From: an uncultured Clostridia bacterium
GTDB taxonomy: Bacteria > Bacillota > Clostridia > TANB77 > CAG-508
DNA: 59,228 bases
Assembly: GCA_944390395.1 (NCBI GenBank)
Contig: CALXPY010000003.1
Span: 1 to 59,228 of the forward strand
Direction of reading: 5' to 3'
A program made the translations under genes and the position numbers. This document shows, one piece after another, positions 37,827 through 38,140 of the stretch. Under the pieces are notes generated by a model, which did no database searches, was not told where the DNA came from, and saw only the letters and a program-made list of their open reading frames with translations. Position 1 is the stretch's first letter. Each line of letters begins with the position of its first letter.

Positions 37827-37886
37827 AGCTTTAATTTTTGCTCTTTCAAATGTATCCACTTGTAAATTTTTTTGAAAAAAGCATAC

Positions 37887-37921
37887 AAAAAGAACGCATC
37901 ACAATAATTCGATACGTTCTT
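37887..37921 (-). terminator. Intrinsic terminator inside the pilin-gene leader
   Basis: AGAACGUAUC-10nt-GAUGCGUUCU followed by UUUUGUAUGCUUUUUU. Confidence 0.65.
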
Positions 37922-37969
37922 AATTTTACATAATCTATTTGAATTTGATGTACAAAAATTAAACCTGTT

Positions 37970-38035
37970 TTATTCTCTAAAACACAACTCTCTCTCTCTC
38001 TCTCTCTCTACAACACCAACGGTTTCAGGCTTCAT
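37970..38035 (-). CDS. Putative leader peptide MKPETVGVVERERERELCFRE with (AG)11 tract
   Basis: GAGGGG RBS then ATG at 38035; 21 aa in the present state. Confidence 0.6.
   Translation of the reverse strand: MKPETVGVVERERERELCFRE
37988..38009. repeat. (CT)11/(AG)11 microsatellite
   Basis: 22-nt perfect dinucleotide tract; the only one I saw in the window. Confidence 0.95.
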
Positions 38036-38111
38036 GCTTGTTCTTCCCCTCGTATTTCTTACTATATTAGCTGAAAAAGAATGATATTAATTCTTTTTCA
38101 ATTATGGATAA

Positions 38112-38140
38112 ATTTTATATTAAAAAAATATAAGTGTCAA
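38112..38140 (-). promoter_or_regulatory. sigmaA promoter for the leader/pilin unit
   Basis: TTGACA-17bp-TAAAAT; 11-bp IR at 38072-38100 just downstream. Confidence 0.7.

Follow-up and report, generated by a model that had tools for sequence, protein, structure and literature searches.

A microsatellite-bearing leader cassette upstream of pilin-like genes, a candidate for phase variation by transcription attenuation in an uncultured Clostridia bacterium

We describe a leader cassette, built around an (AG)11 microsatellite and closed by an intrinsic terminator, that lies upstream of a pilin-like gene in the genome of an uncultured gut Clostridia bacterium. The window, that is, the whole stretch of DNA that was analysed (59,228 nucleotides (nt)), is contig C3 (CALXPY010000003.1) of assembly GCA_944390395.1. 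This genome, hereafter G000, comprises 1.44 Mb in 72 contigs, with 28.2% G+C; G005 is its sister species, other G numbers denote relatives, and L numbers denote loci in these relatives. A preliminary description of the window had proposed that the microsatellite acts as a switch, its length deciding whether transcription passes the terminator. Judging from the architecture of the locus, its paralogues in G000 and its counterparts in related genomes, we consider it probable that the length of the (AG)n tract sets the position of the leader stop codon, and thus whether the terminator ahead of the pilin-like gene is overridden.

All elements of the locus lie on the minus strand, and the order given in the preliminary description (promoter, ribosome-binding site (RBS), ATG at 38035, (AG)11, terminator, RBS of the pilin-like gene) was found at the claimed positions. 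A sigma-70-type promoter of the leader transcript, TTGACA-17-TAAAAT (38140-38112), has 11 of 12 matches and is the top-scoring of seven promoter-like sites between 37300 and 38500. It is followed by an A/T-rich 5' hairpin (38100-38072), which appears in the centroid fold with an 11-base-pair (bp) stem, arms that are 100% complementary and a 7-nt loop, and then by the leader RBS GAGGGG (38051-38046), 10 nt 5' of the ATG (38035-38033). The leader open reading frame (ORF) that starts there contains the (AG)11 tract, (CT)11 on the plus strand, at 37988-38009. The tract begins 26 nt past the ATG, codes for (Glu-Arg)n, and is the sole dinucleotide array among the 122 rows returned by Tandem Repeats Finder for the window. 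The intrinsic terminator (37921-37885) consists of a stem-loop of 12 pairs (37921-37890) and a T run, and is the single terminator-like site in the region (mean of shuffles, 0.3). Beyond it come a conserved motif (37844-37867), which reads TTTACAAGTGGATACATTTGAAA in the window and TTTTACTAGTGGATATATTTGAAA in most copies of the cassette, and a 155-bp quasi-palindromic element (37672-37826), whose 24-nt arms (37672-37695 and 37803-37826) are 96% complementary and lie 107 nt apart. Last comes the pilin-like gene, with its RBS AAGGAAGG (37647-37640) and an ORF of 427 amino acids (aa) at 37630-36347 (ATG at 37630), the product of which begins with KRGITLIALTVTIIVILILAG.

The consequences of tract length for the leader ORF were then read from the sequence. 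With 11 units, the ORF (38035-37970) encodes the 21-aa peptide MKPETVGVVERERERELCFRE and stops at a TAA (37972-37970) located 48 nt 5' of the hairpin, where about 50 nt had been announced. The other frame predictions made earlier were reproduced by simulation: with n = 13 the peptide has 20 aa, ends in ...RVVF and stops sooner, at a TAG (37977-37979) that ends 11 nt past the tract and 55 nt 5' of the hairpin, n = 10 being in the same frame by arithmetic. When 2n is divisible by 3 (n = 9, 12 or 15), a long leader ORF (38035-37846) stays open across the terminator. Simulated with n = 12, it encodes 63 aa and reaches a TGA (37848-37846) that lies 46 nt 3' of the hairpin and within the conserved motif; for n = 9 the same follows from frame arithmetic. 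As also predicted, this long frame does not fuse to the 427-aa ORF: none of the simulated tract lengths joined the two, and the end of the long leader ORF is separated from the ATG of the gene by 215 nt. The motif TTTTACTAGTGGATATATTTGAAA is almost invariant between cassettes and marks the point where homology between copies stops; its conservation exceeds what a long-frame stop would need.

The layout, sought before paralogous pilin genes, turned out to be repeated throughout the genome. G000 contains 33 (AG)n tracts with n >= 8, against four tracts of all other dinucleotides combined (AT8, TA8, TA11 and GT14), so that a chance origin is excluded. All 33 tracts belong to one type of cassette, made of an RBS, an ATG, the tract and a hairpin terminator. 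Its consensus is ATG AAR GCT RAA ACC GTT Gnn nTT GT, followed by the tract and by about 140 conserved nt that include the hairpin and TTTTACTAGTGGATATATTTGAAA. The distance from ATG to tract is 26 nt in 32 of the 33 cassettes; it is 23 nt in C18_13963, which leaves the frame unchanged. An RBS-like motif is present 5 to 18 nt 5' of the ATG in 31 of 33 cassettes, and a promoter-like TTGAC[AT]-N16-19-TAnnnT upstream in 19 of 33. A strict pattern for the A/T-rich 5' hairpin matches seven of the 33, the alignment having more; otherwise, the sequence 5' of the RBS is unrelated among many cassettes.

Eight of the 33 cassettes reach a contig end before any gene, which leaves 25 readable ones. Among these, 22 precede a paralogue of the window protein (N-terminus MKxIKEKRGITLIALAVTIVVILILAG...), and the remaining three (C8_9570, C8_10563 and C16_19619) precede other small membrane-anchored proteins. 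The preliminary description had called the gene of the window a pilin gene. The pilin-like N-terminus stands; no family model was matched above its cut-off. In the 427-aa protein, no Pfam family was found at E <= 0.01, the weak matches being GspG over residues 8-54 (E = 0.03, 14.4 bits for a cut-off of 88.85) and N_methyl (E = 0.32, 11.1 bits for a cut-off of 21.2). The residue at +5 after the Gly is Ala, not Glu. A sequence search of the PDB with this protein returned chance matches to antibody chains only, and an AlphaFold2 model built on a 9-row alignment had a mean pLDDT (predicted local distance difference test) of 34.8, its usable part being an N-terminal helix (residues 2-75). Look-alike clusters in the atlas are unnamed Bacillota proteins, with N_methyl on 21% of one and FGE-sulfatase on 15% of another, and serve as leads only. 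G000 encodes a prepilin peptidase and PilB/PilT-like ATPases. On the basis of its sequence, the downstream product can fairly be called pilin-like, and is a candidate pilin only.

Frame positions were counted from the end of the tract, and 150 nt were scanned in 29 copies of the cassette, C18_13963 being left out. In the canonical G000 copies, stops close the two short frames at +11 and +18, and the hairpin core occupies +68 to +97. Of the 29 copies, 25 close the long frame with the conserved TGA at +142, and two more do so at +139, which is the same TGA after a 3-nt deletion. In C8_10563 it ends at +130, past the hairpin, and C22_3352 has no long-frame stop within the 150 nt scanned, a wider frame scan placing it at +187. 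In C18_13963, which carries an insertion, the short frames end at +6 and +11 and the long frame at +235. Over the 29 copies, three stops were counted before +139 in the long frame, none of them 5' of the hairpin, compared to 122 and 131 in the other two frames. For the 25 copies free of insertions or deletions, the long frame contained no stop, and the other two frames were stopped in 25 of 25. To see whether this openness exceeds what related copies would simply inherit, we shuffled alignment columns among positions sharing the same consensus base, a procedure that preserves the consensus as well as the kinship between copies: all 25 copies stayed open in only 8 of 2,000 permutations, and on average 15 of the 25 gained a stop. 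Likewise, none of 20 distinct hairpin variants has a stop in the long frame, compared to 14 and 18 of the 20 in the other frames, where some of the stops are conserved ones. The 110 distinct variants are distributed over codon positions 1, 2 and 3 as 31, 42 and 37. Since they are spread evenly, it is the openness of the frame that is kept, not the sequence of the peptide. From this comparison of copies, openness of the long frame looks to be under selection.

The hairpin itself is conserved. Among 34 copies from G000 and G005, which represent 29 distinct hairpin sequences, the 10-bp core stem is kept in 32 to 34, a count for which the register was optimised for pairing and in which a few rows are mis-registered. 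At one stem position of this G000 and G005 set, A-U is exchanged for U-A (17 versus 8 copies).

Tract lengths differ between loci. Of the 33 loci in G000, 24 have n = 11, four have n = 13 and two have n = 8, while 12, 14 and 15 occur once each; this places 27 loci in one short frame, four in the other and two in the long frame. Random frames would put about 11 of the 33 loci in the long frame. The two observed there are C16_19619 (C16:19619-19642), on a contig where a prepilin peptidase gene lies about 11 kb away, and C8_10563 (C8:10563-10592). Most G000 loci are one unit away from n = 12. Taking all genomes together, the long frame is occupied in 4 of 60 loci where leader and gene are separate ('split' loci, see below) and in 2 of 13 loci where they are fused. 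The putative ON frame is therefore rare in both layouts, as expected of a mostly silent contingency family. Over loci and species n spans 8 to 17. Three pairs of copies have identical 100-nt downstream flanks, and two of these pairs differ in n (11/13 and 11/8); C4_41132 (n = 8) and C4_43061 (n = 13) share 70 upstream nt. Because such near-identical copies differ in n, we conclude that n changes faster than the flanks.

Tract length in other samples was looked for in sequencing runs. Twenty-four runs, most of those containing the window being labelled chicken gut metagenomes, were listed as Logan contigs, and four of them (X2, X3, X6 and X15) were aligned, with the tract region (37974-38020) masked in the alignment. 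Contig pieces of X3 and X6 end at the edges of the masked stretch, which speaks neither for nor against heterogeneity, and the RNA run X15 has no cover over 37915-38116, which speaks neither for nor against expression. A gapped-pattern scan of metagenomes for tract lengths in other samples gave 0 matches. The possibility that n = 11 is an assembly artefact, due to collapse at k = 21, was judged unlikely: other metagenome-assembled genomes (MAGs) have n = 10-17, and a contig of X2, from a Logan assembly (k = 31), spans the tract with n = 11.

We then asked how the cassette is distributed among relatives. In a DNA search of 41 genomes (G000 and 40 relatives), matches were obtained in 17, the full cassette being found in G000 and G005 only; the remaining matches in relatives cover mainly the tract. 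Across the order, 28 of 201 sampled genomes, and 17 of 34 genera, contain a plain (AG)10 pattern. Tracts longer than those above are present in this sample, with at least 28 units in G066 and at least 22 in G087, as judged from overlapping matches. Two layouts could be distinguished among the related loci. In the fused layout, (AG)n lies within the 5' part of a pilin-like ORF, before the motif GITLIALVV. It was found at 13 loci, two of them in frame: G002 L004, G001 L005, G007 L008, G024 L009, G012 L044 and eight loci of G015. In the split layout, the leader ORF is separate from the gene, as in the window. It is seen in G000, G005, G004, G006 and G014, in part of the loci of G001 and G012, and at two G015 loci.

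The leaders of the split layout are unrelated in sequence between groups, and the geometry of stops versus hairpin recurs. In G000 and G005 alike, the values are those given above, with a long stop at +142 in most copies. In the loci of G004, G006 and G014, the short frames mostly close at +12 and +19 (range +6 to +19), the hairpin spans +58 to +96, and the long frame closes within the 3' arm, at +77 or +86. At one of them, G006 L007, the long stop (+54) lies just 5' of the hairpin as read from the fold, the hairpin scan not having called it. In G001 and G012 the short stops are at +4, +11 or +28, the hairpin at +80 to +115, and the long stop at +117 (a TAA abutting the stem) or +144; here the scan called the hairpin of L046 only, and those of the other five loci were read from folds. 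G015 L012 has short stops at +6 and +11, a hairpin at +109 to +144 and a long stop at +223. The long frame of G000 (...ERERESYVLENK...) and the fused G024 gene when read in frame (...ERERESYNLENK...) are homologous, and for this reason the putative ON frame of G000 is taken to be the ancestral coding frame.

Attenuation, which the preliminary description had put forward from a single locus, is thus reinforced by the 33 cassettes, by a terminator-spanning frame that seems selected, by a geometry that recurs in four unrelated leader families of other species, and by the homology of the open frame with the coding frame of congeners. The mechanism would operate as follows. The promoter would drive a transcript that starts with a translated leader ORF holding (AG)n, and slipped-strand mispairing would alter n. 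In two of the three frames, the ribosome would stop 11 or 18 nt past the tract, about 50 nt before the terminator; the hairpin would then form and transcription would end (OFF). In the third frame (n = 9, 12 or 15), the ribosome would translate through the hairpin to the conserved TGA, 46 nt beyond. By doing so it would prevent the hairpin from forming, and RNA polymerase would continue into the pilin-like gene (ON). The window copy, with n = 11, would be OFF, one repeat unit from ON. We infer that the leader is translated, that the ribosome mediates anti-termination and that the leader promoter drives the gene, together with a rate for the slippage. Comparison supports this mechanism well, because the cassette is repeated, its open frame looks selected, and the same logic is seen in the unrelated leaders of congeners.

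Several observations weigh against attenuation by tract length. First, the assembled contigs, with the tract region masked, gave no sign of variable tract length at the window locus, and n = 11 is dominant: it is the length at 24 of the 33 G000 loci and at nine of ten G005 loci (the tenth having n = 10), the orthologues C39_6404 (G000) and L002 (G005) both have it, and so does the one tract-spanning contig from an independent run (X2, Logan assembly), as in the window. Comparison of these tracts suggests a dominance tighter than free slippage would give. Second, the loci are divided most unevenly between the two short frames (27 in one, four in the other). Third, the genes that follow the two G000 loci in the long frame, C16_19619 and C8_10563, are atypical (151 and 194 aa) and do not belong to the canonical family. 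Fourth, terminator and gene are separated by 155 to about 650 nt of repeated modules, which might harbour promoters; in these modules downstream of the terminator, weak promoter-like sites (9 of 12 matches) do occur. Finally, coupling of transcription and translation is reportedly loose in Bacillus subtilis, and if this applied here, anti-termination by the ribosome would be less efficient.

The predominance of n = 11 may be accommodated in two other ways. The cassette could be a stand-alone small gene or small RNA, in which a promoter-to-terminator unit of about 220 nt would produce a 21-aa peptide or a regulatory RNA, (AG)11 having a fixed length. The shared length in G000, in G005 and in the X2 contig, the presence of a promoter and a terminator of its own, and the high nucleotide conservation 3' of the tract all agree with such a unit. 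We nevertheless find it very unlikely. A search of 37000-39000 against Rfam (E <= 10) gave no family at threshold, the best score being 30.3 bits for a gathering threshold of 60, mainly over the terminator, and the fold is not unusually stable (z = -1.77). Homologous cassettes vary in n from 8 to 17. A stand-alone unit would also leave unexplained why a frame is open past the terminator, given that a terminated RNA would leave this frame stopless, and why the cassette is positioned just upstream, and on the same strand, of one gene family.

Alternatively, the frame could be shifted at the level of the RNA or the ribosome, by transcriptional slippage or programmed frameshifting on the AG run, so that each cell would make a fixed small share of the long peptide. 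A dominant DNA length that is one unit from the open frame fits such a constant low-level bypass. The analysis gave this idea no support, and the DNA length differs between near-identical copies; slippage by RNA polymerase is a property of homopolymer runs and is not known to occur on dinucleotide runs. We regard a shift of this kind as extremely improbable.

The repeated modules found between terminator and gene deserve a separate description. The preliminary description had noted a palindrome at this place. The inverted repeat is indeed there, and it can now be described as part of a multi-copy element, flanked by inverted repeats and occurring in both orientations. G000 has at least 20 full or partial copies of the 155-bp element, further ones being located, among others, at C8:9197-9351, C66:1620-1771, C4:42536-42696 and C7:36297-36452. 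The copies internal to contigs all follow a leader cassette. Seven copies are at contig ends, so that assembly is interrupted by the element. The interior is self-complementary over about 70%, and short derivatives that lack it occur. Relative to the leader, the element core has the orientation of the window in C3, C2, C25_12048 and C4_41132, and is inverted in C8_9570, C66, C4_43061, C33, C36 and C25_17081; either way the flanks are homologous, with up to 99% identity between copies of opposite orientation. A second element, M2, lies between the terminator and the 155-bp element. It is 121 bp long, with arms of about 30 nt and a GC-rich core, and was found in 11 G000 cassettes and at three distinct G005 loci (for example in C25, some 200 nt past the tract located at 1997-2018). 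In C4_43061, M2 is inverted; G005 L002 carries it, and the orthologous C39 locus of G000 lacks it. As read from these copies, the elements flipped or moved during evolution. A joint between opposite strands, from 37623 to 37822 (X2 and X15), was considered as proof of an inversion and rejected: since it starts inside the conserved 5' end of the gene, 48 nt beyond the repeat arm, it is better explained by a paralogue.

These elements raise the question of whether the leader still plays a part. The cassette could be a relic, the detached 5' end of an ancestral gene whose own ORF included the tract, with expression coming from promoters in the downstream modules and being switched by inversion or turnover of the inverted repeats, the tract then being irrelevant. 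The fused versions in congeners are in line with this, as is the placement of the 155-bp element and M2 between terminator and gene, in both orientations with homologous flanks. By eye, the 155-bp element also has TGTTAAAAT, which resembles an extended -10, in one direction, the other direction showing TGTATAAAAT; many contigs end within the element, and several tyrosine and serine recombinases are encoded in the genome. In a relic, however, an RBS, an ATG and an open frame of 42 codons would not have survived over 25 to 29 diverged copies. Families in G006 and G014 with about 40 to 60 nt from hairpin to RBS, and without modules, have the same geometry; no locus was seen in two orientations in one sample, and the window contig has no recombinase gene. 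On balance, a relic leader appears unlikely.

A layered scheme in which leader and elements would both act can also be drawn. Within this order of Clostridia, an in-gene repeat switch would have been split by a terminator, giving an attenuator, to which one or both of the 155-bp element and M2 would later have been added as a second, flipping ON/OFF layer, through an outward promoter or a long hairpin; such a combinatorial switch would show one of more than 30 pilin-like proteins at a time. This scenario is conceivable, and we hold it to be rather doubtful.

For completeness, we mention the surroundings of the locus. A gene for a TraX-family membrane protein (38245-38973, plus strand, E = 1.6e-42) is divergent from the leader promoter, about 100 nt off. 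It is followed by a trypsin-like serine protease gene (38982-39969, minus strand) that consists of two overlapping ORFs of 234 and 120 aa, which match the N-terminal and the C-terminal portions of Trypsin_2; where the two ORFs meet, no repeat tract is present. Elsewhere in G000, contig C67 (35.9 kb) contains a short GA run with G+C-rich flanks, compared to 28% for the genome, and several integrase or resolvase matches. This contig may be a mobile element or a binning contaminant.

How does the cassette compare with known switches? The CTCTT repeats of the Neisseria opa genes are the classical translational switch by a simple sequence repeat (SSR) in the 5' coding region of surface-protein genes. 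The system described here resembles in-gene SSR switches by its large surface-protein family, with a tract near each 5' end and most copies out of frame, and the fused loci of G001, G002, G007, G012, G015 and G024 have precisely that layout, with (AG)n before the GITLIAL motif. In G000, by contrast, the ORF with the tract is separate from the gene, and a terminator lies between them. The presence of fused and split versions within one genus provides a visible route from an in-frame repeat switch to an attenuator.

DNA inversion switches that contain a terminator are represented by cwpV of Clostridioides difficile and by gut invertons. The likeness resides in the 24-nt inverted repeats round a segment of about 107 nt, placed between a promoter and a surface-protein gene and varying in orientation among paralogous loci. 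Here, however, variation of orientation is seen between loci only, with no recombinase gene adjacent, and the self-complementary interior (about 70%) and the short derivatives bring the element closer to a miniature inverted-repeat element.

The closest parallel is found in Streptococcus gallolyticus. According to Danne et al. (2014; PMC3894217), the pil1 and pil3 loci each have a leader ORF with (GCAGA)n, and a terminator after it. When 22 repeats are present, translation of the peptide ends 39 bp ahead of the hairpin and the majority of transcripts are terminated; changes that shift the frame lengthen the peptide, so that its stop falls within or after the hairpin, and expression is then high (PMC3894217). 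Mutants of the start codon and of the stop codon, and deletion of the terminator, support this mechanism, and isolates in which the peptide stops at least 28 nt before the hairpin are low expressers (PMC3894217). The same source discusses the trp leader of E. coli as a case of ribosome-mediated transcription attenuation. There, as proposed here, the position of the ribosome on the leader ORF decides whether the terminator hairpin forms; the input would differ, being a heritable change of DNA length in our case and not amino-acid supply. Unlike in the trp leader, no alternative anti-terminator pairing was predicted by the fold of the window cassette.

The streptococcal system and the present one have in common a repeat-bearing leader ORF and an intrinsic terminator before surface-appendage genes, and a stop of the short peptide well 5' of the hairpin (39 nt there, 48 nt here). 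All sequence-level features of the S. gallolyticus system are present in the Clostridia cassette. The differences are several. The unit is GCAGA (5 nt) there and AG (2 nt) here; both out-of-frame states are long there, whereas one frame of three is long here; and two loci there compare with about 33 per genome here. The products are sortase pili in S. gallolyticus, and proteins with a type IV pilin-like N-terminus in the present case. Finally, the present host belongs to uncultured gut Clostridia, extra inverted-repeat elements lie 3' of its terminators, and the system is known from sequence alone.

In our literature searches, phase variation by leader-peptide attenuation was found for S. gallolyticus only, as far as the sources consulted extend, the one other match being a review of lactobacillar pili, and no description of repeat-driven contingency loci in Clostridia was found. 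We conclude that a mechanism of this kind already has one precedent that was studied by experiment, at least in the part of the literature covered, and that a much larger set is met here, in an uncultured gut lineage. If the cassette works likewise, the mechanism is neither rare nor streptococcal: it would be used on a large scale in uncultured gut Clostridia, at about one locus per 44 kb, before diversified pilin-like surface proteins. Leader ORFs and tract lengths in these MAGs would then predict which surface proteins are ON.

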